A stretch of DNA of 64,000 nt from Fimicolochytrium jonesii (Eukaryota), in contig NW_026515692.1 of NCBI RefSeq assembly GCF_025526975.1, positions 372,001 to 436,000 on the forward strand. Reading direction: 5' to 3'. Below, one piece after another: positions 42,113-64,000 of this stretch (positions are counted from its first letter, which is position 1; each line of letters begins with the position of its first letter). The notes beneath the pieces were generated by a model that saw only the letters and a list, made by a program, of their open reading frames with translations, was not told the origin of the DNA and did not search any database. Both the position numbers and the translations under genes were made by a program.

Positions 42113-44067
42113 ATGCCACCTAAGGATTCAACAACCCAACCTCAGAAGGGCTACGCAGCTGCTGTGGCAGCCGGCAAGCCCTCCGCTCACAACACGCGGT
42201 CCCAAGGAGGAGCACTCCTGGGACCCCTACCTGCGGCCACTAGAGGAGGAGGAAAGAAAGTTCAACAACACGCTGTTAAGAGTTCTGAACCCTCGATTAA
42301 TCAGCGCTCTGGCATTGACTCACGTACTCCGCTTAATCAAGGCGTAGCCCGTCATGCCGACTTACGCAGTGAACCAACACCTACCCCGCCTTACAAAATG
42401 CCTGGTGAATTTGTGGATGAGAAGAAGAGGAAGGAGGAACTTTCTGCTACTATTCCAGAAGGGAAAGACGCAACCACGCCATATGTGGATGCGCCTGAAA
42501 CACGCGGACACACCGGAACCGAAAACAACCCCTTCCTGATGGATTCCATTCAGGAAGAACCTATGCCTGTCAAGCAGGAAGAGGAGGTGATTCAAATAAA
42601 GGATCAAATAGCCAGTCTGACTGGATTAGTTACCTCGCTCTTGAATTCGGACCGAGCGCCACAACAAGGCGGACCTACCGTCCCCTCCGTGAACCCGCTC
42701 ACTCAGTCGCCAGTGAACAGCACTCGCTCTCATTATTCGACTAGCCTTATCCAGGCAAACGCGCCATATATGACCTCGGTGTCACCGGCACCCCATGCGC
42801 CTCCTCAGTGCGCTATGGCCTACTCCGTCCCATACGCTTATAAAGCCCCGGAACGGCATCCTTACTTTCAAACCCGTTCTCAGAGCCCTCCTTTCGCTGA
42901 AATTCCTCACGAAAGTGCATCTGTGGGATCTGTTACTCCCGTAACACCCCCTACGGCCAGCAAATCAGCTTCCAAAGTCTTCATCAACACTACGATTAGT
43001 AAACTCGGCACCTACAACGGCGACCCCAAAGTTACCAAGCTTCAAGGGTTCATTGATCACATCGACGTGATTATGAAGTACCAGATGATTTCGCCTTCCG
43101 AATGCGTAGATTTCGTCGTCAACGCGCTCACTGGACCAGCTCTCCAGTGGTGGAAAAGCCTTCCTGAAAACGAGCGCTTCTCCATAATTTCATGGCATGA
43201 TATTGAAGACGTCTATGGACTGCCTCCTCAACTCGGATTACGCTCCGCGATGTTAAGGCGCTTGATTCCCCGGACTCATCTGCCGCAAGTTCTTCACAGA
43301 CTGCGCGCTCTGAAGCCCAAATCAATTAACCATCAAGGTTTAACCAAATTCGTTGCCCAGTTCAACCTTTTGGCTGGACAACTCCCCGGGCTCCCGGAAT
43401 ACGTGCTCTGTGCCGACTTCCTTCAAGCCCTTCCTAAGAATCTTAGTACCCTGATCACTGCTCAGGCTCAGTACGACGATCTACTTAGTCCTTCTCAAGA
43501 AGCCGCGATTTGTATAGCCGCCCAGCTCAACGAGAAGACCCTGAGTGCGCCTCAGTCGGGCGCATCCGCTGCCCACGTTACTTCCGCTCTACCTCAGAAG
43601 AAGAAGAACAAATGCAAGACTGGCGGCTCTAGAGGCTCCTGCTCTACGCAATCCTCGTCTTCTGACGCAATCAAGAAACCTCCCCAGTGCAAATACTGCC
43701 AAAGGGAAGGCCACAAGTCAGAAAACTGCTTTACTTACAAAGCTGTCAAGGATATTATGGACAAGAACGCGAAAACTAAGCAGGACGCACCCGCTGCAGC
43801 CTCCATGGCTTATGCCATACACGTCAAGTCCAACCAGCCAACCATGACGTCCGCATCTTCAAGGCGAACGTGGATTCCGGTTGTACGGATCATATGACCC
43901 CCTATATCGAGGAACTAGATCCATCTTCTCTTCAAGACTACCAACGCCTTATTGGACTCGCGGATTCGACTACCATTACCTCTCAAAAGAAGGGTACCGT
44001 ACTTACCCAACCTACGTCCGGCGGCAACGTTCTCGCTCTTTGCGACGTTCTATTGGTTCCCAGTCTT
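42113..44067 (+). pseudogene. gag: Copia gag-protease, frameshifted near 43870
   Basis: 594-aa ORF with LTGPALQWW and CKYCQREGHKSENC. The gag frame reads TWI and the protease frame reads VDSGC over the same GTGGATT, consistent with loss of one copy of a 7-bp repeat. Confidence 0.88.
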
Positions 44068-44087
44068 AGGGTTAGGGTTAGGGTTAG
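44066..44087 (+). repeat. Interstitial telomeric tract (TTAGGG)3TTAG at the copia / recombinase junction
   Basis: CCCAGTC-TTAGGGTTAGGGTTAGGGTTAG-TCCATG. Confidence 0.95.
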
Positions 44088-44312
44088 TCCATGCTTTTAT
44101 CGCCGCGCATTACTGATGGTCATAATCTGTCCCATTGTTTAGTTGCTGTTTCGCCTGCAGCCACGCCAACTACACCAATATCGTCTGGTGCGGATGTTCC
44201 GTATCCCTCGCCGCCATCAGGAAGTGCCGCCTTTACGCCAGCGTCACACCCTAGTGGTACTGTTGGAACCAATGCTCCGTTATTCGAGCCGCGAGCCACA
44301 CGCGACTGTGAG

Positions 44313-46384
44313 ATGTCGGAGCAATCAACCCGCGAAACGAGCTTTAACAGAAGCTTCAACACCGAGTTCAACACCGGCACAAGCGACGCAGCATTCAGCG
44401 ATGACGAAGACACAATTGAGTCGGATCTGCGACTTTCTAGAAGGGAAAAAATGACGGATGTAGACGACGCGGACCTTGCAAACGGAATAAAGTCGGTCAT
44501 CAAATTCAAGTGGTAAGTACACTTGTAGATACAATCTTGGTTTCTTCCTGCGCCCTTTTTTACAAGGCGACTCAACTAAGCGTTGTTCTTGATACACTGT
44601 AGTTACACACTCCAGGACTTTGAAATGACGACGTTGAACCACTCCGAGTTCCACCACTTGCGAGAGTTTTTCAGCACCCCACGACCGCGCGCCAAAGGAA
44701 TCAACCGAGTGCGCAATCCTCAGACAATCGCCAAGAGTCGTGAACGAATTTGCGGGTTTCTCGGCTGGCTGAAGCAATCGGGACGCGTAAAGCAACCATC
44801 GTTTAAAGACTTTCACGACTTGGACCTTTTCTTGGTGAGCGTCCCTCCCTTATTTGACAAGTGACATTTTTGGTAATATGTCCATAACATTTGTCGCTCA
44901 CCTGGTCGGTTAGGACAAGTATGTAGAAGGATATCTCGTAGGAATTCGCGGGCTGTCACACGGCTCCGTCGCAAACGCCATCACAGCTGCGATAGATGTG
45001 CACAAATTTCTAGAGTCGGAATCGTCTACAAGACTGCCGGGAACAAAAAAGTCGATGAGCATCACACGTCTTCAAAGCTACCGAAACAGAAAGCAGACTC
45101 TTGCAGAGCGAGAGCGTCAAGCCACTGTAGATGAGGATGGATCGACAATTTTATGGGAGCAAGTTTGTAATGTGCTTCGGCAGTACACGCAGCCAAAAGA
45201 ACATTAACATATTCCACTCCAGTTTCTAGAAGCGATTCGCTGCCAGAAAAAAGTGGTCGACAGCCTGCTAGTTGACGCACAGGACAGCCGGCTTCCGGCG
45301 CAAGTGCAAAAATACTTGGCGCTCGCTTTCTACGCGGCAATTCCACCCTCCAGAAGCAAAGAGATTCGACTTCTTTTGGACCGAATCCTTACCGAGTCAG
45401 AAAGTCGAACCTCGCTACAAAATCACATCACCCTTGTTCAGGGGCGCCATGTGATTGTTGTAAGGTATGTGGATATGGTGGCGAGCGGTCATTTTTCCGC
45501 GGAACACTACCTTATCGTCTTTTGTTTCCACCCTCTTTTTCTTCCAGCGACTACAAAAACAGTCTTTATAATGGGACAAGAGACGCCATCGAACTCCCTG
45601 ACGATTCAAGCATAATTTTAAAGTATCTTACATACTTTCTCCAGCCGATAGTTCGTGCGCAAGTTACGTCGGGGAAAAAACACGGCTATCTTTTCTGCAA
45701 AAACAACGGTGACGCATTCGACAGCGCGGGCGAATGGTCGGTGTATCTCGCCAGGATTGTCGAAAAGCACATCGGAATCGCCAACATTTCCAGTAACGCC
45801 TTGCGCCATTCTTTCACGACGTATATGGAGTCTGCAGTGGAAAGTGACCATGTTCGGCTACGCGAGAGCACCGCGTACGCAATGCGCCATAACATCAGGT
45901 ATAGTACCGCAATGGCTATCTGCGGAGTGTGAGGACAGTATCGGGACTGAATTCTTGACATCTGTAAAGGATCCAGCAACACACATACAACAACACCCCG
46001 TCTATAGAACGCAAAAGAAAAGCGGTCGACTTTGCTAGTCGCGTGTTCAAGCGCATAGTGCTGGAAGATTCGGCAACAGAAGCGGACTCCGACAACGGCG
46101 CACCACCCCTTGGAGCACTTGTAGGAACGAAACTGCTAAATGGACGACCTGGATTTGGAAAAGTAGTGCGTATCGAGAACGCCGACGCCATCATAATGCT
46201 ATTAACGCCGCGCCAGACCGAAGGGGCAACTTTGAGCGAATATGTCGCTGACATCGGAAGTCTATTACGACGCAACATAGCTAGGGAGATTCTTTATCCT
46301 ATTGATGGTGTTTATACTAGAGAGCAAGGGGTGTATGAGGTCTTTACGTCTTTAGAAGATGTGAAAAGGATGTTGGTACGGTAG
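44313..46384 (+). CDS. Tyrosine recombinase, OLV11/Polinton-like-virus type; exons 44313-44512, 44603-44834, 44914-45162, 45223-45464, 45548-45898, 45970-46384 (562 aa from this ATG)
   Basis: Five GT-AG introns keep a single open frame. Catalytic motifs PPSRSKE (R), SDYKN (K), NALRHSFTT, AYAMRHN and IQQHTYN (Y). The frame is open upstream to about 44143, so the gene may be 5'-truncated. Confidence 0.88.
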
Positions 46385-46437
46385 CTGTCGATTCGTGGGA
46401 GCTTTGACGCGTGACGCGTGACGAGCTGTTAACAGCA

Positions 46438-46850
46438 ATGAAAAAAGCGATTGTCCAATTTCAGCGATTGGAATTGTGTTAAGGAATGAAAGAGCGATTG
46501 CGACGCTCAAGGGGGATACGATTGAAAGGGGGGGGGGGGGGGGGTGAAAGAGCGATCGTCAGCTATGGGCTTTGTACTAAAGAATGAAAGAATGAATGAA
46601 AGAGCGATTGTCGCGTTAAGATCGACACGATGAAAGGGAAGAAAGAACGATTGTCGCGTTAAGGTCACACGCACGATGAAAGGGGATGAAAGAGTGATTG
46701 TTCCTTTCAAAGTCAACAGGATGAAAGGGGAAGAAAGAGTGATTGTTCCATTCAAAGTCAACACGATGAAAGGGGAAGAAAGAGCGATTGTTCCATTCAA
46801 AGTCAACACGATGAAAGGGGAAGAAAGAGCGATTGTCCCTTTGATGTCAG
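46438..46850 (+). repeat. Array of about ten AAAGAGCGATTG-like motifs, including five tandem units of about 45 bp
   Basis: ACACGATGAAAGGGGAAGAAAGAGCGATTGTTCCATTCAAAGTCA repeated over 46626-46850; dispersed cores near 46442, 46489, 46547 and 46599; G-run 46527-46544. Confidence 0.92.
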
Positions 46851-47651
46851 CTTTTTTCTTGACCCTAGATAGAAAAGATAGATGTCCTTTTTTATCTTTG
46901 GTTATGGATTTAAATCTGTTGATTTTGCAAATTTGTATTTCTAAGTTTCTATAAGTTCTACATGACGGCGTGACTAGAAAACGGATTTTGCTATAAGGCA
47001 TCCAGGTCTGTAGGGTCAAAACAGTTGAGTTTCTTCCGCTCCCTGCCGCCTCTCTGATCAGATGGTTTCATTTTAAATCCTTTGTGAACAAGGGCAACTG
47101 AGCTTCGTCCAATATCCCCATTTAATTCTGAATCAGGTTGAAGAGGGCACTCAATGGCTTGCTGATTGTCGAAAAGGAGAAATTGTTTTCGATGGCGAGC
47201 GTATATACGAGTAATTGGAAGCCGTCTCGGTGACTAACCTGGGGGAGCCCAGTTTAAGGTTTTTCTCAAGGAGTTTAATACTTTCGTTGAACCACGCGCC
47301 CTGGCTCAGGCGAGTGATTTGGACGGTTATCTTTGCAGACATGTTTTGCATAATTGTTAATATGTAAAGGTTTACTAAATGTAAATAGCATCATATCTTT
47401 AAATACTGTTTTTGCAACACGCGGAGCGTCACTTGTTTGAGCGTTTAACTTAAAGAGAAACTAACCGACATCTACCGTCTGCATAGCGCACTTGCCCCTC
47501 CCCCCCCCCCCCCCTCTCATGGAGCGGTATTTTGGAGCACCGCGCTTTTCCAGACTCTTGCAGGCTTTGGATGAGAAAGGAGAAATTGGCGTTCAATAGT
47601 TCATATACTGCTTAGTCAGCACGAGCACCTTGGTGTTTTGGACAGGATGTT

Positions 47652-48104
47652 CTAATCTTCGGGCAGGAACACAAAAGCAAAGCCTTCGCAGAAATCTAGT
47701 TGGTCGTATTTCTTGATACAAGCAAGTGCAATGACGCCAGTGGGGTTATTAAGGATTTCATCATAAGTTTCTTTCCCAAAGCTTGGCACCAATTCTTGAA
47801 AGAAGTCAGCCGCAGAATAAACTGGATACAAGCCTTTGGTCCCTTCAAAACAGAATTTATACACCGGTTTGGCACTTCTAGAACACGCTTCTCTTGCGCT
47901 TTCACGCACGGCGTAATGTGCGTCCTGAAGTCTGTAATGGAAGTAGTCATACATCCTGCTTAAACGTTTTTGTTTCCTTTTGCTGCATGATTTGAACAAG
48001 TCGTTTCCGATGCGATGGTCTCCGTGCACTGGATAGCGCACCGTATCGACAAATTCCCAGAATTCACTTTCAAGCTCCAGCTGCGTGCGTTTTGTTTTGG
48101 TCAT
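47652..48104 (-). CDS. Hypothetical protein (150 aa, intronless)
   Basis: ATG-started ORF with an AT-rich upstream region. Confidence 0.6.
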   Translation of the reverse strand: MTKTKRTQLELESEFWEFVDTVRYPVHGDHRIGNDLFKSCSKRKQKRLSRMYDYFHYRLQDAHYAVRESAREACSRSAKPVYKFCFEGTKGLYPVYSAADFFQELVPSFGKETYDEILNNPTGVIALACIKKYDQLDFCEGFAFVFLPED

Positions 48105-48194
48105 TATGTGTTTATTAAATGTATATAACCGTATATCTTCAAATAGACTTTTTGCAACGCGCCGTTTCCCAATTTATACAAATAATCGACGCGA

Positions 48195-48362
48195 AACCGA
48201 TGCAAAATCTGATGTAACATGCGCCGAAAACCGATGCAAATTCCGCATCAAAACCGATGCAACTATTGTCTCCATATATAAGCAACCAATCCGATGCAAA
48301 TTACATAGGTGATTTCATATCCGGTGCAAATGACAGAACATGACCTCATATCCGATGCAAGT
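48195..48362 (+). repeat. Six to seven dispersed CCGATGCAA motifs in a divergent intergenic region
   Basis: Copies near 48197, 48231, 48254, 48291, 48321 (CCGGTGCAA) and 48352, plus degenerate CTGATGTAA; TATAAAA follows at about 48372. Confidence 0.85.
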
Positions 48363-48417
48363 CTAGGACTATATAAAAGAGGGTTTTCTGCTGTTTTTCG
48401 TTGAAGAAATAAATACA

Positions 48418-49189: not shown

Positions 49190-49702
49190 TTATAACAAGT
49201 CTTCTCTTACCCGCCGCAAGTCACTACAGATACAGGGGTCCGCACCGTCCTCAATATCCGCGATGTCGATGTTGCTTTCCTCGCAAAGATCATACATCTG
49301 TTTGAGACAATGGTCGTGATGTTCCGCTTTTTCACGGAGTCGATTCCATCCCTCATAAAGAACCTCACCCCGGTTTTTGCGTAGTATTTCCAGAATATCC
49401 TCAAACGACTCATAAAGGGACCACGAGTTCACTCCCAATGCAACAATCGTTCTTTGATACGCATAATTCCTGTTACAGAGCTGTCGGGCAATGCACATAC
49501 ACGTCGCGCTTTTCGACAGATTGTCGTGTGCCTTTTTTAGATCGTTCATTGACTCAATTATTGTGTTTTCCTGCAGTCCCCGGAGTTCTTCTTTCAGCCG
49601 GGACACCTCTGCCTGTAGGTCCTGGTGTTCGTTTTGCTGTTCGTCTTGTTCTCTGTTTGTCTCAGCGTCACCTTTCTTTATGTTTTCTGGTTTTTCCGAC
49701 AT
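49190..49702 (-). CDS. Hypothetical coiled-coil protein (170 aa)
   Basis: LQAEVSRLKEELRGLQENTIIESMNDLK heptad pattern; intronless. Confidence 0.6.
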   Translation of the reverse strand: MSEKPENIKKGDAETNREQDEQQNEHQDLQAEVSRLKEELRGLQENTIIESMNDLKKAHDNLSKSATCMCIARQLCNRNYAYQRTIVALGVNSWSLYESFEDILEILRKNRGEVLYEGWNRLREKAEHHDHCLKQMYDLCEESNIDIADIEDGADPCICSDLRRVREDLL

Positions 49703-49838
49703 TTAGCGGATTTGGATATGATAGACACTTACTTTTTAATTATAGGTTCGCAAGCGCACCTATTTCTCCCCGCAGGAAAAAAACTAGGAGAGATGATATA
49801 CAGCTAGTGCTTTTATATCTATAACAAAAGACGATCAG

Positions 49839-50714
49839 ATGTCAGACCCCTCTATAGAAAACGCGATGGAAAACGCAGTCATCACAATCGAGCAGCGCAT
49901 CGACAAAGACCTGATGAGCTGTGTCATCTGTTTGGATGAGCTCGACTTTCCCATTATTCAATGCTCAAATGGACCGCATTTTATATGTGCGGCGTGCGTT
50001 CCAAGAATCGACAAATGCCCAGTTTGTATGAGCGGAGGCTTCCTACACAATCGTCACCTCGAAAACCAGCTGATGCCCTTTGCAACATCTTGCACGGTCC
50101 CAGGCTGCGATCGCAAGTGCCTTCCTTGGGCAATAAAAAGTCATGAGCGCCGATGCGCTCATAGCTTATTTCCCTGCTTTATCTGCGGGAAACAGGTCTC
50201 TCTCCATGGTCTCGCAAAGCATTACAGCAGCGAATGCTCATGTGTGTATCAGGTGCACGACCGTTCAGGGCATCAAAGAGAAAGCCTTTTAACAATAGGC
50301 AGCTTGCATCCCGTCTTGCCTTTAAGAGACGAAAACAGCATATGCCTCTACTCTCAGGGCGTTAACCTTTTATGCAAGCCGATAGGTGGGAACTTAAGCG
50401 AGCACCCTTATTGGGGCGTCGTTGCTGTACAAAAGCCGCGCAACACGCCGACAGCAGAACCTCCTTTTGTAACGCTTCGCGTCCACGACAAGACTGGGCA
50501 ATCTTTGTCGTTTTTGTCGGTAACAATCAGAGCATTTAACGAGCTGAAACACGTTACGGCAGCGCATGCAGCCCTTATCCCCGCCATCAGCAATGACACG
50601 GAGCTCCATTGTAGCGTTCAAAGCAATAACATCTGGTTTTCCCCGCTATCAGGCATCCACTACGACGATGCGACAGATAATGACGATGACCTCGACAACG
50701 ACGATGCGACATGA
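49839..50714 (+). CDS. SINA/SIAH-like RING E3 ubiquitin ligase
   Basis: CVICLDELDFPIIQCSNGPHFICAAC..CPVC (RING) followed by NRHLE and SIAH-type zinc fingers (C..PGC..HERRC..PC..H). Confidence 0.82.
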   Translation: MSDPSIENAMENAVITIEQRIDKDLMSCVICLDELDFPIIQCSNGPHFICAACVPRIDKCPVCMSGGFLHNRHLENQLMPFATSCTVPGCDRKCLPWAIKSHERRCAHSLFPCFICGKQVSLHGLAKHYSSECSCVYQVHDRSGHQRESLLTIGSLHPVLPLRDENSICLYSQGVNLLCKPIGGNLSEHPYWGVVAVQKPRNTPTAEPPFVTLRVHDKTGQSLSFLSVTIRAFNELKHVTAAHAALIPAISNDTELHCSVQSNNIWFSPLSGIHYDDATDNDDDLDNDDAT

Positions 50715-50734: not shown

Positions 50735-51412
50735 TCATCCGGGTCTCAGATTACCATAATCGACCCAGAATGCTATCACCTCCAAAAGCTCGTTCTTGCT
50801 CCCTTTAAACCACTCGCAATGTCCTTTGGTGGTTTTACAGCAGCACTCGATATGACCAAGCCATTTGTTTTTTGTCTTTAGTTCATTGTGTATCAAGTGC
50901 TCGCACAAGCGATGGCGGCTTACCTTCCAATACCCTTCTAAAGTAATAGGTTGTTTGCATTGCCTCTCCCACTGTTTTCCGCGCTTTACCGGTCCCACCT
51001 TTGTGTTTGTACAACCGATTTTATACTGTTCCAGTTCTACGGATTGATTTCCACTTTTCCGAAACATATATATATACCCCGGTTCGTCGTTGCCTTTTTC
51101 CTTGTCGGACAGCAGTACGCTAAGAACGCGAAGACAACTGTGTCCCTTTAGCCGATCGGCAATCAAATTTAAATCATGATCTGGTGAGCAACGTTTTGAT
51201 GTGCGGACAGGGACAGGTGGCGGCTCAATACAAATAGGACCCAAAGGTTGCGGTAAATGGGTCTGCGATTCTAACGCTTGAGATTGCGATTGCAACCACT
51301 TGTTGCGCAATACTACTACAACCTTCTGGGGCAGAACGGACTTGATAAATAGGAAAAGTAAAGCACATATTGCTAGTAATTTAACGTGTCGCCAAAACTC
51401 GCATCTACGCAT
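50735..51412 (-). CDS. T5orf172/MUG113 (GIY-YIG superfamily) protein with N-terminal hydrophobic anchor
   Basis: PGYIYMF, YKIGCT, KRGKQWERQC, EHLIHNEL and HCEWF. Confidence 0.85.
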   Translation of the reverse strand: MRRCEFWRHVKLLAICALLFLFIKSVLPQKVVVVLRNKWLQSQSQALESQTHLPQPLGPICIEPPPVPVRTSKRCSPDHDLNLIADRLKGHSCLRVLSVLLSDKEKGNDEPGYIYMFRKSGNQSVELEQYKIGCTNTKVGPVKRGKQWERQCKQPITLEGYWKVSRHRLCEHLIHNELKTKNKWLGHIECCCKTTKGHCEWFKGSKNELLEVIAFWVDYGNLRPG

Positions 51413-51511
51413 CTTACTGTTTCACCACAAATTACTGTAGCGACAGTGCGCCCGCATGTAGCGTGTTGTGTACTTTTACGACGTGCGAATAATTAGAGCT
51501 CTGAGGTATAC

Positions 51512-51921
51512 TGCGAATAAATGGGCAACTCTTAATTTCGGCTTTATGCAAATTTGAATGATTAAATAATAAAAAGAAACAGATACTGAAAATAAATAGG
51601 CAACGTCTATGTCAGCTTTAGGCAGAATTGAATAATAAATAATAAAATAAATTAGATAATGCGAATAAATGGGCAACTCTTAATTTCGGTTTTTACGCAA
51701 AACTGAAAGATTGAATAATTAAATAATAAAAAGAAACAGATACTGAAAATAAATAGGCAACGTCTATGTCAGCTTTAGGCAAAATTGAATAATAATGCGA
51801 ATAAATGGACAACTCTTAATTTCGGTTTTTACGCACAACTGAAAGATCGAATAATAAAAAATCGAAATGATGCATATAGGTAGGGAACGTCTAATGTCAG
51901 CTTTAGGCAAAATTGGATAAA
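51512..51921. repeat. Three AT-rich tandem units of about 125-150 bp
   Basis: TGCGAATAAATGG(G/A)CAACTCTTAATTTCGG starts at 51512, 51660 and 51796; each unit contains AACGTCTA(A)TGTCAGCTTTAGGCA. Confidence 0.95.
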
Positions 51922-52048: not shown

Positions 52049-52260
52049 CTAAAACCTCTGGACGCACTCTATTATCCAAGTGAGTACCGTTCCTTTATTT
52101 ATTATTTTTTCCACAAATAGTGTAAAGAAAAATAAGAGTCCATAGGGTCTAGGGCTTTGCCGTCTTCAATAGTTTTGTATAAAAAGTCGGAAATAAATCG
52201 AAAAATTGACAATACAATCAATTTCTCAACCTATACAGCAGTATATATAGAAAAGTTTCA
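52049..52260 (+). repeat. Diverged direct repeat, copy 1 (copy 2 at 56021-56232)
   Basis: Colinear blocks CTGGAC..ATTATCC.AGTG..AAAAATAA.AGTC..AGTTTTG.ATA.AAAG..AAATTGACA..TATATA.GAAAAGTTTCA. Confidence 0.8.
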
Positions 52261-52470
52261 AGAGCGGGCTCAACCCCTGAGCCCATGGACGCAAATTTAT
52301 GGAACCGTTTTCCCCTACATGTCGGTACAGATTCGACTTACATATCGTCTGCCTGACTCGATGAATGGAGGGCGTCCACAGGTGGGAGCTCGCCAGCGTT
52401 TCCTGAGCTGTCAGAATTCTGCTCTTCTGTTCACTGAGTCATCACCGAAATCTGGAAGATTCCCGGGGTT

Positions 52471-52674: not shown

Positions 52675-53301
52675 ATGAACGGCTCCGTAGACCCTTTCAA
52701 AGAAGTCGCAAAGTTTACAGACTATGCCGACTTCAAGCAGTGGTGCTCCCACAACAAACTCCCCCGTGGATACGCAAAGGCAGTTTGGGATTTCCACGAG
52801 AAGGAAGCCCGCGATATGGAATATAAACGCGAACGGCGCCACAACATTTTCGAGGACGGCGACCCTATCGCTGGAACCATCACGTCCCCTGCACTGCTCG
52901 ACCTTCGCTTCGACGCACCCATCCGCAAGACCCTTGTTCTTGTCGGTCCAGCCGGTTCCGGGAAGGTTCGATGGGTTCTCGAAAACAGCCCCAAGCCGAT
53001 CTACATCATTCGTTCCCCAAGCGACCTCCGCGGCTTCAGCAAGTTCCTGCAGCGATTTCCCGGTTACATCAAGTCGATGCTCTTTATCCAGATGGATTTC
53101 AAGAAATATCCTTATAACGAGCAGAGAAACGTGGTGGAAAGCCAAGTCCCCACTGCCCGTATTCCTTACCACGGACATGGGGTAAAAATCCCAGTCAATA
53201 TTCAGAGGACATTTGTCTGGAGCGGCGACGGATTCCCGTTTGGAGAAGAAGCGGGGGTCAGGCGTAGGATGCATATAGTTAATACAAATCTTGCTGAGTA
53301 A
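52675..53301 (+). CDS. CRESS-DNA-virus Rep-derived SF3 helicase domain (no HUH domain, degenerate Walker B)
   Basis: KTLVLVGPAGSGK, PKPIYII..SDLRGF, KSMLFIQMDF (usually IIFDDM), VKIP..RTF and PF...VRRR. Confidence 0.75.
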   Translation: MNGSVDPFKEVAKFTDYADFKQWCSHNKLPRGYAKAVWDFHEKEARDMEYKRERRHNIFEDGDPIAGTITSPALLDLRFDAPIRKTLVLVGPAGSGKVRWVLENSPKPIYIIRSPSDLRGFSKFLQRFPGYIKSMLFIQMDFKKYPYNEQRNVVESQVPTARIPYHGHGVKIPVNIQRTFVWSGDGFPFGEEAGVRRRMHIVNTNLAE

Positions 53302-53422: not shown

Positions 53423-53980
53423 TTATCTAGCAGACGTCGGCTTTTTGCTTCGCCTGGTATCGATGCCCTGAGTCAAGCTGCTACGCAAACCCGGCGGAAA
53501 ACTTGCTTCGTCCACAGGCGGTTGCCTACGGTACGCACGAGCGGCGTTAATTAAGTGTATTGCACGTTTCCAGGTAGTGGAGAAAATGCGCTGGACTTCA
53601 GTAAAAGATGTCTTCTGAGGAGCTGCTTGTCGTGCTTCGTTCAAAACAGTCCACAAATCTTTCATGAGCACCCGTAATGTATTGTCGTCCCAGCTAACCA
53701 TTTCCTCATATGCCGTGCGCTTTCCGCCATCGGCGTGATTTGCGCCACCCTGAAAGGGGTCGGGTGTGGTCGTTGCTTGAAGGACGAGTACCCAGAGTGC
53801 CAAGAGATACGCACGTTCGACGTCACCATCATCCGCATCGCCGACGGTGCTAGCTTGAGACTCTGTATCAGCGCTACTTGTGTCGGCATCGTCATTTTCA
53901 GAGTGCTGGCTCTTGGCAATTAGCAGAGCAAACGGGTCGTCGTAATTTTGTAACTGGTCGTTCTTAGAGATATGAACCAT
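53423..53980 (-). CDS. Hypothetical protein (185 aa)
   Basis: ATG-started ORF with an acidic N-terminus. Confidence 0.5.
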   Translation of the reverse strand: MVHISKNDQLQNYDDPFALLIAKSQHSENDDADTSSADTESQASTVGDADDGDVERAYLLALWVLVLQATTTPDPFQGGANHADGGKRTAYEEMVSWDDNTLRVLMKDLWTVLNEARQAAPQKTSFTEVQRIFSTTWKRAIHLINAARAYRRQPPVDEASFPPGLRSSLTQGIDTRRSKKPTSAR

Positions 53981-54107: not shown

Positions 54108-55057
54108 TTATGCCGTGAAGTCTGTCTGCTGATGCAGGGGGCTTCTTAATCGCAGGTCTGTTTTGGCATCACCGACTTTTGTGGTCTGCCTGGTGCGGTG
54201 GCTTGTGTCAATTTTCATGACCGAGGATCCTTGTCGCTTCTCTCTCTCTTCTTTTGCAACTTTCTGATAAAGTCTCCAGAAGATCAGGGGACCGTAAGCC
54301 TGCGATATGAAGAAGACTGCACAGGTCACGACCGTCGTGGTGCTGTACCAGATCTTCCATTCGGTCCAATAACTAACGATGGCAACTATGCTGAATATCT
54401 GATTCAGAACCTTGCACGCAGTATCGATAGCGAACGTTGAGAAGAGTAGGCGCGAAAGCAGGCGAGTCTCTCCTCGCCAAACTCGATAGTAGACCAGTGA
54501 AATGTTTTCCACGAACTCGCAGAAAAGGAACCAGCCGTAGATACTGACCAGGATGCTTGCGCCAAACTCAGTGATTGGCTCGTTCGAAGGAGGGTCGTAC
54601 AGGTAGATACACGCGAGGACGATTGTGCTGACATGATGCAGTAGACACAACATCGAGGTATCAACTTGCCTTCGATTGAATTAATGTTCGGCACATTAGC
54701 ATGTGGTTGTGTCAAGGACATATCGATCGTCTTAAGCCCTCACCAGATAAGCTCAAACAAAAATGTCCCGCACGTGAACGTGATAAGGTATCGGATACAG
54801 ATTACTGATCCCACTCATGTTCTGGTGTTGCGAATCCACAAGATATCCAAAAACGGGTAGATTCCAGCGAGCATTGAGAGAGGTTTGACGATGGCGTTCC
54901 AAGCATCCTTGACAGTTGCTCGACGGGCGGTGACCGAGAGGTTTGTGAACGAGGCACCAAACGTCTTGACAAGAATGTAGCTGTCGAGGGCTTTGGCAAG
55001 GACCAATATGCCGCCAAGTTGTCCAAGCAGGACGAAGAAGAGGTCTTGAGGAATCAT
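54108..55057 (-). pseudogene. Fungal-type multi-pass membrane protein (TLC-like), decayed
   Basis: Several TM segments, FLFELIW* and LLHHVSTI; two in-frame TGA codons (about 54815 and 54740) and a frame change or intron. Confidence 0.6.
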
Positions 55058-55639: not shown

Positions 55640-55930
55640 ATTGGGTTAGGACCCTATTGGGTTAGGACCTAACCCTAGGAACTCAAGTGAGGAAATAAAT
55701 AGCAGAATTAAATGAAGAATTGATGAATAAAATAACAACAAATAGGAATACCGTTCATCCAAAAAGGCTGATAATTCACGAAATTACATTAATTCCACGA
55801 AAAGGGTATTTTACTTTGCAACAAACAAAAAAACAAAACCGGCAAGCAGTGAGGGTTAAAGATCGGGTTAGGGTTAGCGAGCGCCAAGACCTTGTTCGGC
55901 GGTCTTCATTGGGGTTAGGGTTAGGGTTCT
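55640..55930. repeat. Cluster of telomere-like GGGTTAG motifs in an AT-rich spacer
   Basis: TTGGGTTAGGACC twice and CCTAACCCTAGG (55641-55680), GGGTTAGGGTTAG (55865) and GGGGTTAGGGTTAGGGTT (55911). Confidence 0.75.
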
Positions 55931-56020: not shown

Positions 56021-56232
56021 CTCAAACTCCTGGACCCGTTCCATTATCCGAGTGTGTTACTTTCTTTTTATTTATTTTCTTTTCAAAAGTAATGTAAGTA
56101 AAAATAAAAGTCAAGGGGGTCAACGGGTTTAAGGATTCCACAAGTTTTGCATAGAAAGCTAAAAATAAATTAAGAAATTGACATTAACGCCAATTATTCA
56201 ATGTGTACATATATATATATGGAAAAGTTTCA
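56021..56232 (+). repeat. Diverged direct repeat, copy 2
   Basis: See 52049-52260. Confidence 0.8.
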
Positions 56233-56622
56233 CAAACAGTCAACAGCTCTGCCCCCGGGGACGCGACTTTATGGAGCGGGTTTTGGCTACATTCGGCAGA
56301 GATATCTCAGTCAAATTCTCCGTCTGTCTCCATGAGTGGAGCGCGTCCCTCGGTTTCTCACCGAAAATATACCCAGTGTTCTGGAATAGGCCATGTGAAA
56401 GTGATAATGACATCGATTGAGCGCAGCACAATTTCACTTTTTCTGTAATTCCCTTCGCACTTGATTTATTGTTAAAGGTACTCACCTCGTCAGCGGGGTG
56501 CGTTTCCGGTTATTTTGCAGTAGAGTAGCGTGGTCAATTAAAATTATAGGTATCCGGAAAGTGATTATTCTAGTGATTCCTATTTCAATGTATGTTTATT
56601 CATATCCATCCCTTTTCTCATT

Positions 56623-56738
56623 AAACGCACATCTGGTGCCTCGCGGTATAGCCCTAAACCAACATGCGTTTAAAAAGACGTTTTTCTTTTAATGATATAC
56701 TAATAAATCAACAACAACTAACGAAAAGCGGCAAAATG
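56623..56738 (+). promoter_or_regulatory. Duplicated upstream element, copy 1 (copy 2 at 57473-57583)
   Basis: AAACGCAC..GTGCCTCGCGGTATA..TAAACCAACATGCGTTTAAAAA..CAACAACAAC..CAAAATG precedes two different ORFs. Confidence 0.8.
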
Positions 56739-57038
56739 ACGGACAAAAACAACAAGACTATAGACGCAGTGGTGAAGAAAACTGAAAAATTGATCAAAGC
56801 AGCGAGAGATGAGTATACAGACGGTTTCATTGCCGATAAATTGCACGACCTCGGGAACTTTCTGAGTCCGCTCGATTGCGATGACAAAGATGCTGCAGAG
56901 GAGCATCTAAAAAAAGAACTTGCAGAATGGCTTGCTTTTTATAAACGGAAGGGCGCGCTGGATGATGAAACAGAATCATGGTTCCAAGAAGCCGTGGACA
57001 AAATGTTGGAAAAGCATGTGCGCAAAATTGTGGATTAA
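56736..57038 (+). CDS. Hypothetical helical protein (100 aa)
   Basis: Starts at AAAATG after the duplicated upstream element. Confidence 0.65.
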   Translation: MTDKNNKTIDAVVKKTEKLIKAARDEYTDGFIADKLHDLGNFLSPLDCDDKDAAEEHLKKELAEWLAFYKRKGALDDETESWFQEAVDKMLEKHVRKIVD

Positions 57039-57184
57039 GAATTACACTAAATACGCATGGTGGTTGGCAGTCTGTCGAACACATGGTAATAAAACACATA
57101 ATGAATACACTTGGCAATGATGGTGCCATGTTTATTTATTATATAGTCCAATGGGAGTTAATGGTAACACCCTCTCCTCTAATT

Positions 57185-57421: not shown

Positions 57422-57472
57422 GGTTTCTTTCTATACCTTAAGCCAAAGAAAAACATTTTTCATAGTAAACGC

Positions 57473-57583
57473 AAACGCACACATCATGTGCCTCGCGGTA
57501 TATAGTTAAACCAACATGCGTTTAAAAAAGCGCTTTTATTAAGTGATAGACAAATATACCAACAACAACACGTACCCAAAATG
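57473..57583 (+). promoter_or_regulatory. Duplicated upstream element, copy 2
   Basis: See 56623-56738. Confidence 0.8.
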
Positions 57584-57767
57584 TCAGCTGCACCCGCCGC
57601 AGTCGCCTATCCTTCGCGAACAACTGGAGCAAAATCCGCCCGGCGTCTACGGAAAACATTAAAAACGAAATCAGCAGCTGGAGAGGGCGGCACGCCAGCG
57701 GCTCATGTGAAACTGAATCTGAGCCAACGTCTCCAGCCTTTACTCAAAAAGGGAGTATGCCAACGAA

Positions 57768-60146
57768 ATGCGTATAAACAAGTTGCTGAAATCACCCTTG
57801 CTGAACGCAAAAGAGCGCAGTTCACTATTGGCTTACCAAAATCAGCGTAAAAAACATGACGCTTTCGAAGGAAATTACATTTACAAGCAGCCGCAAGGCT
57901 ACGGACGTCTTTATGTCGACGGCATTGGGCACCAGAACCTGTCAAAAAATATCAGAACTTACATCACAAACGGTTACTACACGGACATCGATGTTGTGAA
58001 CTGTCAACCGACGCTGACTAGATTTCTTTTCCAGCTTTTCCATCTCCAATGTCCGCCGGATCTGGAGCGTTACTTGACAGATAAGGGCGCCGTTCTAGCA
58101 GAAAATGGGATAACGGACAAGAAAGTGGTGAACAAGTATTTAAACAAAAGCAAAAACGACGCACCGCACGCGTTTCTTAGAAATATCCACAAGGAGATTT
58201 ACGAGAAGCTTGTGCCGCGCCTTCAGGAGTCGCCGGAGTTTAAGCCGCTGTGGCAGTGGGTCGAAGCTTCCGACAAGAAATACAACAAACGCGGCTCTTT
58301 TTTCTCGTACGTTGTGGCGAGTATCGAGAATCTTGTGCTTTCAGCAATGCACTGCTTTTTTACGAGAGGGGGTTTTTCGCCAGACAGCCTGATATTCGAC
58401 GGGATGCTCGTAAAAGCCGACCCTCGAATAAACGACGACCTGCTGAGGGAATGCGAGCGTTTCATCGAAAAGCAAGTGGGTGCACAGGTGCAACTCGCGG
58501 TCAAGCCAATGGAATGTACTGTGGATTTTGACAAGGAAATCACAGTTGACACAAGCAACATTGTAATAGAGGGTAATAAAGAGCTGTCAAAGTTGATAGA
58601 GGAATCTCGGAGCGGCACTAGTGGACGGCTTGCTATACTCGCCATGTATTTGATGAAAGAGCGATACATTTGCATTCGGCGCAGGCAGTGGTTTAAATTC
58701 GAACAGCACAAGTGGACCGAGCTGGCAGGGTGCCCAAGCATGGACGCAATGGACTTGTTACTTTGTCCCATTAAAGAGTGGTACGACGCACTGCTTGTGG
58801 AATTGGATCGCATGCAGTGCGAAAGCGAGGATGAAGCCGAAAGACGGTACTTAAAAACTCAGGTTGAAAGAGTGGAAAGGGAGAAAAGGATGCGCGTCGA
58901 AGCGATTGAAGACTCGGGGATAAGGGTGAAAATCATGAAAGACTTAGAGGATCTAATGGACTCTTATACAAAAGACGTCGTTTTTGACACAAAACCGTAT
59001 CTATTGTGCTTTAAGAACGGGGTGTACGATCTTTTACTAGACGAATTGCGGGATGGGTTGCCGGAAGATTATCTCACCATCGGCGTGCCGTACGCTCTTC
59101 CTGACTCTATGTGTCCTGACATCGACGCAAAGCTCGACGCTTTGCTAGAAAGCATCTTCCCTGATAAGGAAGTTCTTCTATACGTGATGCTGACGCTTTG
59201 CACATGTCTAGAAGGAATCAATCGGCACGAGCAATACTGGACGTGGCTGGGCGTTGGTCGTAACGGCAAGGGTATTCTCAAAGATCTAACGCAGCACACG
59301 CTTGGAGAAGAGCTGTGCAAGTTTCCAAAGCCAACAATTCTAACTACAAAACGGTGCGGGTCGAGCCAAGCGAACCCCGAGTTTGTCGACCTAAAAGGCG
59401 CACGAGCGGTATTCGTTTCTGAGCCGTGTGTCGGGGAGAAAATCAAAAGCGCAACCTTGCGTGAGCTTACCGGCAATGATAAATCCCGGCAACGAGGGTT
59501 GTACGGTGCGCAGGAGACCGTGAGCCCTGATTACAGCTTATTTCTCTTGTGCAACGGACGTCCAGAGATGGACGCCCCTGACACCGACGCGATTTGGGAT
59601 AGGGAAAATAGCGTCCATTTTCCACACAAGTTTGTGGAAGATCCAAAACTGCCTCACGAGCGCCTGACTGACAAGGGATTGAAGCAAAAGCTCACAGAAT
59701 ACGCGCCGTATTTCATGCTCAAACTTTTGCAATGCTACAAGCAGTACAGGGAAAATGGATTCAAGTTGGATGCGCCACAAGGTGTTTTAGCGGTGAGCCG
59801 AGAATACCGGTTGGAAAACAACCCTGTCGAAAAGTTCTACCAGGAGCAAGTGGTAAAGGCGTCTGAGACAACTGCAAACGAAGGTTTTGAAGAGCTGGAG
59901 TCAAACAGCATGCTGCTGCCGGTCTCTCGACTCTGGTCTTTGTTTGAAAGGTGGAGAAAGGACAACACTGTGGCGGCAAGTATATCGGAAAATGGGTTCT
60001 ATCAGAAGCTAGCGAAATTAGCCAAGTGTGATGGTTTAAAACCCGTGAAAAGAAAAGTGGATGGTGCAAGGGTTATGTGCTACGAGTGTATGGTTATTAG
60101 GGAGTATGAGTGGAGCGGCGTGGACAGCTGCTGGCGTTTAAATTAG
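57768..60146 (+). CDS. TVpol (PolA-like primase-polymerase) fused to a D5-like SF3 helicase
   Basis: YGRLY..Q..IR, YTDIDVVNCQP (motif A) and LIFDGMLV (motif C); D5-N LLCFKNGVYDL..PEDYLT; Walker A GVGRNGKG, Walker B AVFVSE, motif C LLCN and AIWDR. The 5' end may involve ORF 57581. Confidence 0.9.
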   Translation: MRINKLLKSPLLNAKERSSLLAYQNQRKKHDAFEGNYIYKQPQGYGRLYVDGIGHQNLSKNIRTYITNGYYTDIDVVNCQPTLTRFLFQLFHLQCPPDLERYLTDKGAVLAENGITDKKVVNKYLNKSKNDAPHAFLRNIHKEIYEKLVPRLQESPEFKPLWQWVEASDKKYNKRGSFFSYVVASIENLVLSAMHCFFTRGGFSPDSLIFDGMLVKADPRINDDLLRECERFIEKQVGAQVQLAVKPMECTVDFDKEITVDTSNIVIEGNKELSKLIEESRSGTSGRLAILAMYLMKERYICIRRRQWFKFEQHKWTELAGCPSMDAMDLLLCPIKEWYDALLVELDRMQCESEDEAERRYLKTQVERVEREKRMRVEAIEDSGIRVKIMKDLEDLMDSYTKDVVFDTKPYLLCFKNGVYDLLLDELRDGLPEDYLTIGVPYALPDSMCPDIDAKLDALLESIFPDKEVLLYVMLTLCTCLEGINRHEQYWTWLGVGRNGKGILKDLTQHTLGEELCKFPKPTILTTKRCGSSQANPEFVDLKGARAVFVSEPCVGEKIKSATLRELTGNDKSRQRGLYGAQETVSPDYSLFLLCNGRPEMDAPDTDAIWDRENSVHFPHKFVEDPKLPHERLTDKGLKQKLTEYAPYFMLKLLQCYKQYRENGFKLDAPQGVLAVSREYRLENNPVEKFYQEQVVKASETTANEGFEELESNSMLLPVSRLWSLFERWRKDNTVAASISENGFYQKLAKLAKCDGLKPVKRKVDGARVMCYECMVIREYEWSGVDSCWRLN

Positions 60147-60426
60147 GATTAAATACACATTGCCATTGAATTCCTGCTTACTAAGCTCAGGCACCTGGAT
60201 GTTTGACAAGGCTTATCATTCGCCGGAATTTTGCAACCGCTATGTTCAATTGTTTTGCTTTTGATATATGATTTATTATTATTGTTGCCAAACGGTTGCG
60301 TTTAACAACAATTCATGGTTATTGTGCGTATAGCGCCACCGAGTTTCCTAGGTTCTACAGCAAAAACACAGCGTTATTCTTTTAAATCGACACGGACATA
60401 AAAGTGCGGTAACTTACTGTGGACGA

Positions 60427-63400
60427 TTATTCCTGTTCTCTCGACGCAATCTCCTTCCAGTGGGGATCACGGCTCATAAAGTCGTCGAGTTGTTTCGCGC
60501 TAAGCCTTTGATGCGTTTCGATTATGTTTGCCTGCATCGTCGTACAGTCTGTGCAAAACTCGCTCGGCTCTACTGTCTGCCTGTCGCATCGTTGTTTAGG
60601 CTTATTTAATTGGTGGCATTTGCCGCAGCTTGTGCCATCCGCAATCAGTGGCTGACCACAGACATTTTTTTGCTCCCTTACAAATTCTGGAGTAAGGAGG
60701 GAAGGAAGGAAATGAGTCAACGCAATCACGACCTGTGGGCTAAAATACACGTAAAAGCTTACTTGGCTTTACACTACATGTTTCCGGCTCGACATGAGCG
60801 GCTGCTGCACAATCATTGTCTTGGGCACTTGAACGACTCGCTCCAGCTCCAGTATCCTGATCTAACTGTTCCTCGTCATACTGCCGAGAGGCGAACACTT
60901 CTTCCGCGATACGGCTGTGTTTCTTACGGAGCTCATTAGGAGGCACGGAGGTCCAGTCCGAAGTGTCTCCAAGAATAAATTGGGTTGCCCACTCAAGAGC
61001 ATAGGGTCCACAACTGTTAGCGTCCGTTTGTTTCGGGATGAGCTTAGACGCTGTGACAGTGTCGATTGGGGGACACGGTATTGCAGTCACGGTGTCTTGA
61101 GTGACCACACGTTTGACCACCTTTTCCACCTCGTCGATGTGGGCTCCTTGATGGAAGGAGTCCGCAAATTCCCATCTCCACTCCTGAGCAGACATTTTGC
61201 TTGCGGTATAGACGACCCAGTGGTTTTTACCGCGGTTGAAGGGAGCCACGATTCTTTTGGTTTCGTCGTCAATGATACGGAAGCCTCCATCAAGGCTATC
61301 GACAACTGACAAATCCTCGTGGTTCGCTTTGGCGTGGTTCAAAAGATAGTAGAAGCAGGTGTCGTTGTACCACTCGGCTCGAAGGCGTTGTACCATGTCT
61401 TCATAAGATGTCTTGCTGATGCGATCAATGGACGCTGTACGTTGTGGTTTCCCCATTTTCGATAAAGATCGTTTTGGTGTGGAAGCCGAGGCGAAAAGCC
61501 TTTTTCCTTTAAGCGCCGGAGTCCTAGGGGTTGGGTACGGGTTGAGCTTACGGTCCCGAGTTGGAGGTGTCCCAGTGAACGGGGTCGACGCCACGGGCGA
61601 TCGGGCGACTTGTTCATCGACAGGCGAAGCAATAACTTCCTCCGCAAATGTCGGGAGGGTCACACTGTTCCATTTCGTCCATTCTGCCGGCGATACGCTT
61701 TTGCTGCGTCGGATTCTCCGCAGGACTGCGTTCCAGGTACGTGCAGTGATTTGCAAAACGCCTTTCTTTGACAAGAATTCTAACCCATCAGATTCAAAGT
61801 TGAAAAGCAAGATTCCCTTTCCGATTGCGTCGACCAAATCCCTGAATCGCTTCCCTGCATTCACTTGTCGGCGAAAGACCTTGGTGTTTTTGGGGATGAT
61901 GCCTTCCCTCGTCATCCAGGTAAGAACTGCGTTCGTGAATTTGCCGTCATCTTTGATTATCGTGTAAGGTCCGGACGTTCTGCGAATCAGTACCTCGCGC
62001 ATCCCGTAGTCTACGCATCTGTCGTACGCGTTTGCAAGAGCAACTGCACAGACATATGACTGAAAAATGGCAATATCTCTGTGCAAAAGTTACAATGAGT
62101 GACTTTTCTTTGTCAATGTGGTATTATCGAAGCAATTTACCTGTTTCCGGTGCATTTCTCCATTCTGTGCCATGCGACGGTCAGAGCTTTGTCGGCAGTT
62201 TCTTCGGGAGCACTCAGATCGATTTCCATAAGATCAGTATGTTCCAGACCTTTACTGGTTAAAAAATATGTCGGATGTAAGCTCTGTGTTCCCCTGAATT
62301 TACCGGTAGTAATGCCTGTGTAGAAGCCACCCATTACCTAACCAGCGTGACACACTCTTCTAACTCGGCAGCTGTTATCTCTTCCAATTTCTCCAACAAC
62401 CTCGTGATGAATGTGTCTTTACTCGAAAATGTTTCGTCATCTGATGAAGGGGGTGTCCCACGGGGTGTCCCATTGCGCGAACGGGTCCCCGTTTTCGAGG
62501 GTTTTGTGACGTGGTTTATGCTTTGCTTGCGCTTTTTTTTGCGCTTCTTTGCTGGACGGTGTGCCTTGTTGTCATCATGTTTTGGTATCTTTCTCTTGTC
62601 ACCAGTTGTTTCGGTGTCGTCCGTTTCTTCGCCCGATTCCTCGTCTTCGTCCGAGTTCCTCTCCGTTTCCGTGGCGTCCTTCCCTTCCCCACATTCCTCG
62701 TCTTTGTCTGAGTTCCTCTCCGAGGCGTCTTCGGTGTCCAAGTTCACGTTTGGTGCAAGAGGTGCTGCACCCTCTTCCGACTTGTCCCTAGTTTTTTCTT
62801 CTGGGTCCGAGCTGATTGTTGCTACGCGCTCGTACACTTGAACTCTCCGTTCGTCGGCGTGATCCTCTGTCGTATACTTTGCAAGACTCGTTTTATCAAC
62901 AGATGACCTAGTAAAAGGTGTGGACTTTAGACGTTTTTAAGCTTATGGCTCCAGAAAGCGACAGACTTTACCGCACGCTTCTTTCCATCACTAAGCGGGT
63001 TACACCTTTCTGTGCCAGGATCGCCACGAATAGTCCTATGACAGACGTCAAGGGTTCTTCAAACGTCACGTCTTGCAGTGGAAAGTAATGGACAACAGTG
63101 CCAGTTGTAAGCGATTCCAGGGTTCCGTTTATTTTTGTATAGACTGGCGGCGCTGTGCCTTGTATCCATCCGCGCATGGTCTCGTGTATTGTCCTCATAA
63201 CCTCGTTCCTGTCGTCTTCAAGATTAGGTATATCATCGAGAGAATAAAGGTCGGAAACTGTTTTTCGGATGAGGTGGTGGGCATCATCTTTTCCAGAGTT
63301 GCCGATAAATCGCAAGAGGTCCTCAAATGACTTCAGGAGACTGAGCACAGGTTCTCCGGCGCTGCCCATACGCGCCCGCTCGTAGCCTGTCAAGAACTTG

Positions 63401-63606
63401 AGCAGTCTGATGCTCAGAGTGTCTGCGGTCCATAGTGCTTTCCCGGCGTCGTCGCTTCCTTTTTTTTGAAGAAACCTAATGGACGTCGGGTCGCCACGAT
63501 AAGAATCGCGGAAATCTTCCAGTTGTTCGAGGGAGATGTGTTCTTTGTTGAGGAGCGCTTCTAGCTCATTCAACATTGCGATATCTGAATTGTCTGCACC
63601 GTCCAT
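60427..63606 (-). CDS. Large multi-exon Ulp1/C48 cysteine protease; exons 63606-62972, 62907-62338, 62254-62141, 62078-60763, 60686-60427 (at least 964 aa)
   Basis: Four GT-AG introns join five ORFs in frame. WYNDTC, NHWV, FADSF and KQTDANSCGPY give the His-Asp-Cys triad plus oxyanion Gln. Cys-rich tail; further 5' exons are possible. Confidence 0.82.
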
Positions 63607-64000
63607 ATCTTGTTACTGGTCCGAAATGGGAAAAGGGGGTGTAAGCGTCTTTGTGTTGTTTCCGACAGCCTGTGGTATAAGTGCACCGAAGCGGAGAGTT
63701 GTCCATTTTGCTGACTAAGCAGATGAGGATGACTCAGCACAGACACTCGGGTGCTGGAGGTTCCTAAAGCTATACTGTTCTGCAAACTTATCACAGGTCT
63801 TTCAGTGAGCACGGAGGGGGATACTCGTTTTGCCCTACTAACATCCCGCTTGTTACCATCGCGTATTCCAATCGCACAGGGGGCGACAGCGCACTTGCCA
63901 AAAGGTACTTGCCGCGGCGGAAAAACCTAGACAACAGACTCGGATTTGACGAAAGGTCCTTTTACAGATTGTGGAGTTGATCACTGTATCTCTTTCAGTT

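Follow-up and report, generated by a model that had tools for sequence, protein, structure and literature searches.

In a 64,000-nucleotide stretch of the genome of the chytrid Fimicolochytrium jonesii (RefSeq assembly GCF_025526975.1, contig NW_026515692.1, positions 372,001 to 436,000 of the forward strand; hereafter the window), we examined a distinct block of at least 20 kb (44066-64000), inside which the window ends. The block carries two core genes with relatives in other chytrids, a tyrosine recombinase (YR) and a TVpol-D5 primase-helicase, and its left edge is a telomere-type repeat that cuts a Copia retrotransposon and stands where the first exon of the recombinase is missing. With a probability that we put near 45%, the block is the left-hand 20 kb of a mobile element confined to chytrids, which inserts by recombination at a AGGGTTAG core at intron 1 of its own recombinase gene. 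That the block forms one mobile unit we consider quite probable; granting this, an attachment site at intron 1 is rather probable, and the lack of capsid genes as probable as the unit itself.

Recombinase and replicase genes

Exons 2-7 of the YR gene occupy 44143..46384 (plus strand). As a preliminary sequence-only reading had proposed, the gene bears introns: five GT-AG introns of 60-90 nt (44513-44602, 44835-44913, 45163-45222, 45465-45547 and 45899-45969). The spliced product (562 aa; Met at 44313) equals database protein P0013 letter for letter, and the source label of P0013, Fimicolochytrium jonesii, bears out the proposed fungal host. Residues of the catalytic pattern are present (R271, K311, N391-x-x-R394, H422, Y431) and a PHROG integrase profile matches (E 3.4e-4); in Pfam, P0013 is unmatched and its near-twin P0012 matches Phage_integrase (2e-5). 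The C-terminal 95 residues resemble a Tudor/PWWP-like barrel at a middling score (Z 7.6, root mean square deviation 3.3, 63 aligned). The full YR model is poor (pLDDT 41) and gave no Foldseek match at E 0.001; PDB sequence searches with the YR, TVpol and a Rep-like query (described below) returned chance rows or none.

The YR appears to be of the type found in virophages as well as in Polinton-like viruses (PLVs). A profile built from 14 YRs, all of viral loci in which TVpol is present too, aligned with P0013 over ~200 positions, all motifs included, at 49 bits, a score inflated by the choice of seed loci for their similarity to a chytrid profile; 200 shuffles gave at most 4.5 bits and XerC/D 14 bits. 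Related YRs occur in 18 of 70 fetched viral loci, and a scan with the YR alignment returned one phage integrase locus. The label OLV11-like, given earlier, may fit. None of five YR proteins matched DUF3435, DUF3504 or GCR1_C at E up to 1, in keeping with the earlier statement that the recombinase is not the DUF3435 enzyme of Starships.

A search with one YR exon returned 10 proteins at 51-100% among 69 candidates, from five chytrid genera (three each from Fimicolochytrium and Borealophlyctis, one each from Rhizophlyctis, Powellomyces and Geranomyces) and one metagenome. Starts, ends, insertions or deletions in the relatives' gene models coincide with all five intron positions (residues 66/67, 144, 227, 307 and 424), four of them in other genera. 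As other members of the family share all five positions, the introns probably date back to the ancestor of the chytrid YR family and do not signal decay, and the idea that the element was partly intronised after insertion is not borne out. The same species also has a divergent partial YR (P0020) on another contig, in a gene model fused to a Trf4/PAP-type fragment.

The second core gene (57768..60146, plus strand; D5_N 1.3e-9) encodes a TVpol (PolA-like)-D5/superfamily 3 (SF3) primase-helicase of 792 aa. The fold predicted for its N-terminal domain (pLDDT 93) has matches in the replication protein of the Zamilon virophage (E 1.2e-15, TM 0.81) and in Pol I/T7 polymerases (E 2e-4 to 1e-3); the primase domain is thus PolA-like and not of the archaeo-eukaryotic primase type. 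The PolA motifs D73-x-D75 and D211 are invariant over 46 aligned TVpol domains, and catalytic motifs are intact in both the YR and TVpol. The description of an intact 792-aa polymerase-helicase holds for the open frame and its motifs but not for the start of the gene, where homology begins 8 codons upstream of the Met and a homologous leader (57581-57745) lies in another frame. This leader belongs to an open reading frame (ORF) at 57581..57850 (plus strand) that is out of frame with the main ORF, matches the N-terminus of TVpol relatives (20/58 residues identical to P0002) and switches at an A5 run (57746-57750); the switch could stem from misassembly, from mutation or from programmed frameshifting.

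Among 7999 scored candidates, 11 matched TVpol: five relatives at 56-73%, with Fimicolochytrium, Rhizophlyctis and Borealophlyctis among their sources, and the rest partial at 24-28%. Six proteins of the chytrid family form a 100/100 clade in a tree of 66 TVpol domains, which leaves the sister group unsettled (72/35). All four annotated viral TVpol loci are Sputnik-type virophages with Sputnik-type capsids (16 of 70 by profile). Metagenome and viral scans with alignment found relatives only at 20-38%, and no relative emerged when viral contigs were scanned with TVpol, Ulp1 and P0005 as single proteins, or from a prokaryotic genome scan. One Sputnik-type virophage contig (L025, 9851-15493) holds the best full-length TVpol-D5 match (230 bits) together with the best YR match among the fetched loci. 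Two TVpol relatives, P0003 and P0005, are 80-82% identical and come from different sources on contigs of 26,136 and 26,095 bases, which may reflect the unit size of sister elements or coincidence. F. jonesii has a second TVpol (P0002, 73%) on yet another, third contig; one genome holds several subfamilies.

At genome level, the YR and TVpol co-occur in three chytrid genera, and all three genera with TVpol also have the YR; two genera have the YR with no TVpol match. Divergence across genera is alike for the two genes (56-62% and 57-62%), and a PolA-type replicase with a YR is a known stable pairing (10.64898/2026.10.13.758929). The check for recurrence of this pair, suggested by the earlier reading, succeeded at genome level, with physical linkage seen here only. 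Both genes are members of a chytrid family, and the closest relatives found for it are genes of virophages; profile, structure and the relatives' loci agree on the virophage/PLV lineage first proposed from sequence.

The left junction and the missing first exon

The left junction of the block is sharp. Ordinary spliced fungal genes fill the left 41 kb of the window, with a GC content of 0.539 in 1-41000 versus 0.462 in 44066-64000; GC at third codon positions is 0.70-0.77 in three host genes versus 0.46-0.61 in block genes, and composition is even along the whole block. The host DNA at the junction is an interrupted Copia-type retrotransposon (42113..44065, plus strand), in which a gag ORF (42113-43897; Retrotrans_gag and Ty3_capsid matches) is followed by a pol fragment resembling Copia polyproteins, a protease region ending at DVLLVPSL. 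Beyond VPSL, no integrase or reverse transcriptase continuation was found within the window. Among 50% representatives there was no close Copia sister, the best full-length match being 47% identical (three or more of the leading rows, which showed many short stretches, were discounted as repeats). The gag/pol frame change just ahead of the protease motif (43860-43897) reflects decay or an assembly error. Splicing from the Copia frame into the YR was rejected as out of phase.

The Copia sequence is cut at (TTAGGG)3TTAG (44066..44087, plus strand), the likely attachment core. The sequence-only reading had the block begin with the recombinase; the YR is indeed at the left end, but the repeat comes first and the YR lacks its first exon. 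TTAGGG is the canonical telomere repeat, which we assume to be that of F. jonesii itself, and not one of 100 windows simulated by a Markov model contained even two tandem units. The G-rich strand of the junction repeat points right, as if a chromosome end lay beyond the block.

Elsewhere, close to a Rad5-like host gene, the minus strand bears two telomere-type motifs in tandem (18365-18377); short interstitial motifs thus also occur in host DNA. A 108-bp duplication (39837-39940 and 41215-41321; 79% identity) lies left of the Copia element. By eye, 21000-41000 holds short, odd host genes (an ankyrin fragment, a nuclease-like frame at 24646-25818, low-complexity frames) and a declining GC content, which would suit the vicinity of a chromosome end.

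Overlapping the last repeat unit and running up to exon 2, we predict a 60-nt YR intron 1 (44083..44142, plus strand), whose GTTAGT donor at 44083 is formed by the last repeat and whose TTTAG acceptor (44142) is the point at which P0012 joins the window; the donor gives the intron phase that P0012 needs. The exon upstream is absent from the window, in which the first 126 aa of P0012 have no tblastn match. An N-terminal domain common to P0012 and Borealophlyctis P0018 (40% over 105 aa, 7e-22) likewise has no match in the window; its resemblance to Bro-N/ORF6N antirepressor folds (TM 0.55-0.64) is a lead only.

What is said here of the stretch past base 64000 is deduced from annotated proteins. 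P0012 is listed on a contig of equal size to that of P0013, seven accession numbers later (six gene models between), and the two proteins differ in 3 of the 477 residues compared (~99% identical). P0012 skips one exon, and its C-terminal 262 aa occur twice. This repetition suggests two further YR copies, which likely lie just past 64000, since the genes to the left number well over six and include no YR copy; this placement presumes that accession order equals contig order. Together, the missing exon, the repeat at the intron donor and the near-twin annotated further on suggest that the recombination site lies within the recombinase gene itself and that copies insert in tandem. Of such a self-splitting arrangement, the left part and the absence of the exon are observed, and exon 1 is likely to lie beyond 64000.

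An accident could have produced the same junction. The YR gene would then normally lie whole near one end of the element, exon 1 would have been lost in a break healed by, or fused at, telomere repeats, and P0012 would be a separate, complete neighbour. P0012 and P0018 are indeed whole, P0018 carrying the N-terminal domain joined to the YR core, and proteins with that domain alone numbered 0 among 93 short candidates. The Copia letters also supply a TTAG seed, of a type typical of de novo telomere addition, and the closest relative (47% identical) likewise has R after this L. Yet the intron at the break is complete and in phase and the gene is intact in all else, the same domain is absent from four of six near-complete models (and present in 2 of 10 YR models in all), and near-identical tandem copies fit the reuse of one site. 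We regard this account as unlikely, if the least so of the three alternatives weighed here.

Capsid genes and the rest of the block

The earlier report of no visible capsid stands for the window. No Pfam match to a capsid or A32 ATPase was obtained in any of 109 block frames of at least 70 aa, and virophage profiles for the major and minor capsid proteins, ATPase and protease gave best E values of 0.22-4.3 over all 415 frames of at least 30 aa; PLV-specific capsid profiles lie outside this set. Core genes of nucleocytoplasmic large DNA viruses (NCLDVs; major capsid protein (MCP), PolB, A32, VLTF3) were not found in the window, nor was a long inverted repeat. Of the six gene models that separate the YR copies, two correspond to window ORFs, and further genes of the window, several in number, are probably among them; because nine other window ORF versions have no letter-identical entry in the protein collection, this count cannot close the capsid question. 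In the part seen there are no capsid genes, and the unit as a whole probably lacks them too.

The block might nevertheless be an ordinary endogenous PLV or virophage of chytrids, with its capsid, penton and ATPase genes in the unseen part. A YR, a TVpol-S3H and a GIY-YIG gene make up a standard PLV/virophage set (PMC4642659), PLV ATPase genes occur in numerous chytrid genomes (10.64898/2026.06.19.733378), and profile searches can miss PLV capsids (PMC11296320). Moreover, the contigs of two relatives measure 26.1 kb, and ~6 kb would be left if that were the unit length. Size is no obstacle: the sequence-only reading called the element giant, whereas at least 20 kb is ordinary among PLVs, which span 14-40 kb (PMC12220804). 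Against an ordinary PLV, the 20 kb seen hold just two frames above 305 aa, TVpol (807 aa) and Ulp1 (449 aa), only six gene models lie between the two YR models, and called genes cover ~63% of the block with several of them spliced, unlike compact PLVs. The PLV of Spizellomyces, too, uses pPolB and 154-bp terminal inverted repeats (PMC7805220). We judge an ordinary virus of this kind improbable.

Pfam matches upheld three other genes named from sequence. An Ulp1/C48 protease gene (60740..62936, minus strand; PF02902 2.3e-5) has an intact H-D-C triad, a last exon frame of 449 aa and 13 candidate splice models, with probable upstream exons that include an acidic low-complexity region. A Sina/SIAH-type RING protein of 291 aa (49839..50714, plus strand; PF21362 6.1e-8) and a T5orf172/MUG113 gene of GIY-YIG type with an N-terminal hydrophobic segment (50735..51412, minus strand; PF10544 7.3e-15, hydropathy) lie side by side. 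The proposed helix-turn-helix gene has no profile match anywhere. What was described as a fungal-type membrane gene (54108..55057, minus strand) does have hydrophobic segments, over two frames, but neither a family match nor a clean splice model. ORFs of 150 aa (47652..48104), 170 aa (49190..49702), 185 aa (53423..53980) and 212 aa (62968..63606), all on the minus strand, have no profile match and no family. The first is flanked by a 53-bp repeat (47370-47422 and 48110-48162; 79%) that could be a shared promoter motif. Upstream of an ORF of 100-124 aa (56664..57038, plus strand), ~98 bp (81%) are common with DNA upstream of the TVpol leader.

A further ORF of 208 aa (52675..53301, plus strand) corresponds to the SF3 helicase half of a Rep protein of circular Rep-encoding single-stranded DNA (CRESS) viruses (atlas feature scores 0.95-0.96; TM 0.71 to a Rep cluster). 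Its Walker motifs are altered (GSGKV; FIQM), it holds no HUH domain and has no Pfam, PHROG or PDB sequence match, and no CRESS nonanucleotide lies near it. This Rep half, the missing 126-aa exon with the repeat at its donor, the probably ancestral introns and the TVpol frame change were all absent from the sequence-only reading; the telomere-type repeat at the donor is the most unusual of them.

The many repeat arrays that it described are not enriched in number: there are six tandem arrays in the 20-kb block versus 11 in the 44 kb to its left, while the long non-coding arrays and a dispersed duplication are specific to the block. These are a 45-bp array beside a G run (46481..46849), with a C run near 47500; an AT-rich array of ~150-bp units (157 bp; 51508..51920); and a 330-bp segment (52049..52377) that is 70% identical to 56021-56348. 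Some 1.7 kb upstream of the replicase, a cluster with a GGGTTAGG-A-CCTAACCC palindrome (55643..55924) holds seven of the window's 17 GGGTTAG matches within 282 bp, chance predicting 5.2 for the entire window. It folds no better than shuffles (z -0.83). The cluster is a candidate origin, telomere-protein site or old junction, an old junction being as likely as an origin; telomere-protein sites support the Epstein-Barr virus origin (PMC3533235).

These features bear on whether the block is one unit at all or a subtelomeric pile, in which unrelated elements came to lie together: a small YR transposon of Crypton-like type, to which the Ulp1 gene may or may not belong, a TVpol-D5 unit of its own and a piece of an endogenised CRESS virus. 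Consistent with a pile, two genera have the YR with no TVpol match, the two genes lie on different contigs elsewhere, the internal TTAGGG cluster and 330-bp duplication could be joints, and some Cryptons bear an Ulp1-type C48 peptidase (PMC3212892). Both core genes, however, point to the same virophage gene pool with similar divergence across genera, the composition of the block is uniform, and GCR1_C and DUF3504 matches are absent from the five YR proteins. A pile is in our view the least probable of the alternatives.

Known systems, a proposed cycle and its meaning

The closest known systems are the Sputnik/Zamilon virophages and TVpol-S3H PLVs (PgVV/Gezel-14T, OLV11-like YR), which share with the block a TVpol-SF3 fusion, a related YR, a GIY-YIG-type gene and the size range. 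The block differs in having no capsid, penton, A32 or maturation protease gene in the 20 kb seen, in spliceosomal introns shared across its family, in extra N- and C-terminal domains of the YR and in a telomere-type junction; identity is only 25-30%, and the part seen gives no evidence of terminal inverted repeats. PLVs of Spizellomyces punctatus and other chytrids are alike in host, integration and length (~20-27 kb), the Spizellomyces group being set apart by pPolB, 154-bp terminal inverted repeats and an MCP (PMC7805220). D5-like matches in chytrids are known (PMC11296320), as are chytrid giant viruses, of which the available part of the account mentions no tyrosine recombinase (PMC13533422). 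Mycodnaviridae and other NCLDVs have core genes and a high gene density, neither of which the window offers, and the transpoviron, a capsid-less element, relies on pPolB and a DDE transposase (10.64898/2026.10.13.758929), in contrast to the TVpol and YR of the block.

Starships, as characterised in PMC10104507, resemble the block in gene order, with an intron-bearing YR at the left end facing inward and cargo, presumed in the block, behind it. They differ in a DUF3435 captain and a Pezizomycotina host, whereas the block lies in a chytrid and has its own primase-helicase. Circularisation of Starships joins their ends and raises captain expression (10.64898/2026.09.21.753150); in the block the other end would supply a coding exon, and not a promoter alone. 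Cryptons (CryptonF, CryptonS, CryptonA/Glomhopper) share a fungal intron-bearing YR, possibly short direct-repeat ends, of 4-6 bp in Cryptons, and, in some, an Ulp1-type protease. CryptonF and CryptonA are defined by GCR1_C and DUF3504 (PMC3212892), for which the block has no match; its YR is virophage-like, and it adds a replicase and many extra genes. The Glomhopper paper mentions neither chytrids nor helicases (PMC13465315). In archaea, 'suicidal' integrases of the SSV family have an attachment site inside the integrase gene, which is split on integration and rebuilt from its pieces (PMC7253208). Those genes are intronless with the site in the reading frame; the parallel is one of arrangement, the split in the block being deduced. 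TTAGGG repeats at the insertion point also occur with human herpesvirus 6, Marek's disease virus and the telomere retrotransposons SART and MoTeR, of which the last two insert by reverse transcription, not by a tyrosine recombinase. The two herpesviruses integrate by homologous recombination at terminal repeats, again not by a YR (PMC3533235).

Several points weigh against an element that attaches within its own recombinase gene. The evidence stops at 64000, and the second end, an empty site and a circle junction lie outside it. The intron donor and the repeat share letters, so the break of a chance rearrangement seeded at a telomere repeat would fall in the same place; that P0012 has its intron 1 donor at the repeat is assumed, and counts of exon 1 depend on gene models that are unreliable at their starts. 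Physical YR-TVpol linkage is observed in this window only, the two genes lying on different short contigs in Rhizophlyctis (19.6 versus 26.1 kb) and Borealophlyctis (10-13 versus 9.3 kb). A composite or decaying block is compatible with the Rep half, with the cluster of repeats inside the block and with the switch of frame in TVpol. The inflated virophage-YR score, the whole P0018 and the finding of the N-terminal domain alone in none of the 93 candidates tell in the same direction.

If the element does attach at intron 1, its cycle may be as follows. It would excise as a circle, in which exon 1 at the right end, encoding a Bro-N/ORF6N-like DNA-binding domain, would join the 60-nt intron and exons 2-7 at the left end. 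The joined ends would allow the full recombinase to be made, splicing removing the attachment site from the protein. TVpol-D5 would prime and unwind the circle, perhaps from the GGGTTAG cluster upstream. The YR would then integrate the circle at the AGGGTTAG core on the exon 1-intron 1 border, splitting the gene and leaving a TTAGGG core at each end that the next copy could reuse. Such reuse would build tandem arrays with a whole YR gene at each internal joint, an arrangement suggested by P0012. YRs act through circular donors in PLVs (PMC12220804), tandem integration is reported for such viruses (10.64898/2026.10.13.758929) and virophages are reported near telomeres (10.64898/2026.07.28.741278).

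We take the block to be a variant of the virophage/PLV replication-integration module, with a split-gene mechanism that is likely but unproven. A larger claim, which we hold to be doubtful, is that of a new class: a capsid-less, self-replicating, virophage-derived circle whose YR targets TTAGGG, with its own intron-1 splice donor as attachment site, so that integration would switch the recombinase off and excision or tandem insertion switch it on, and with arrays at chytrid chromosome ends. In the literature, mostly open-access, we found no account of this family or of a eukaryotic split YR at telomere repeats; supplements of bioRxiv PLV surveys may list these chytrid loci. If this is correct, fungi would have, besides Starships, a second and independent recombinase element that carries cargo, one of virophage descent with a replicase of its own; it would exemplify, in living form, the passage from virus to transposon that has long been proposed for Polintons and their kin. 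Public assemblies alone would suffice to test telomere-directed integration and the control of integrase expression by topology, and the system could supply a site-specific integration tool for chytrids.

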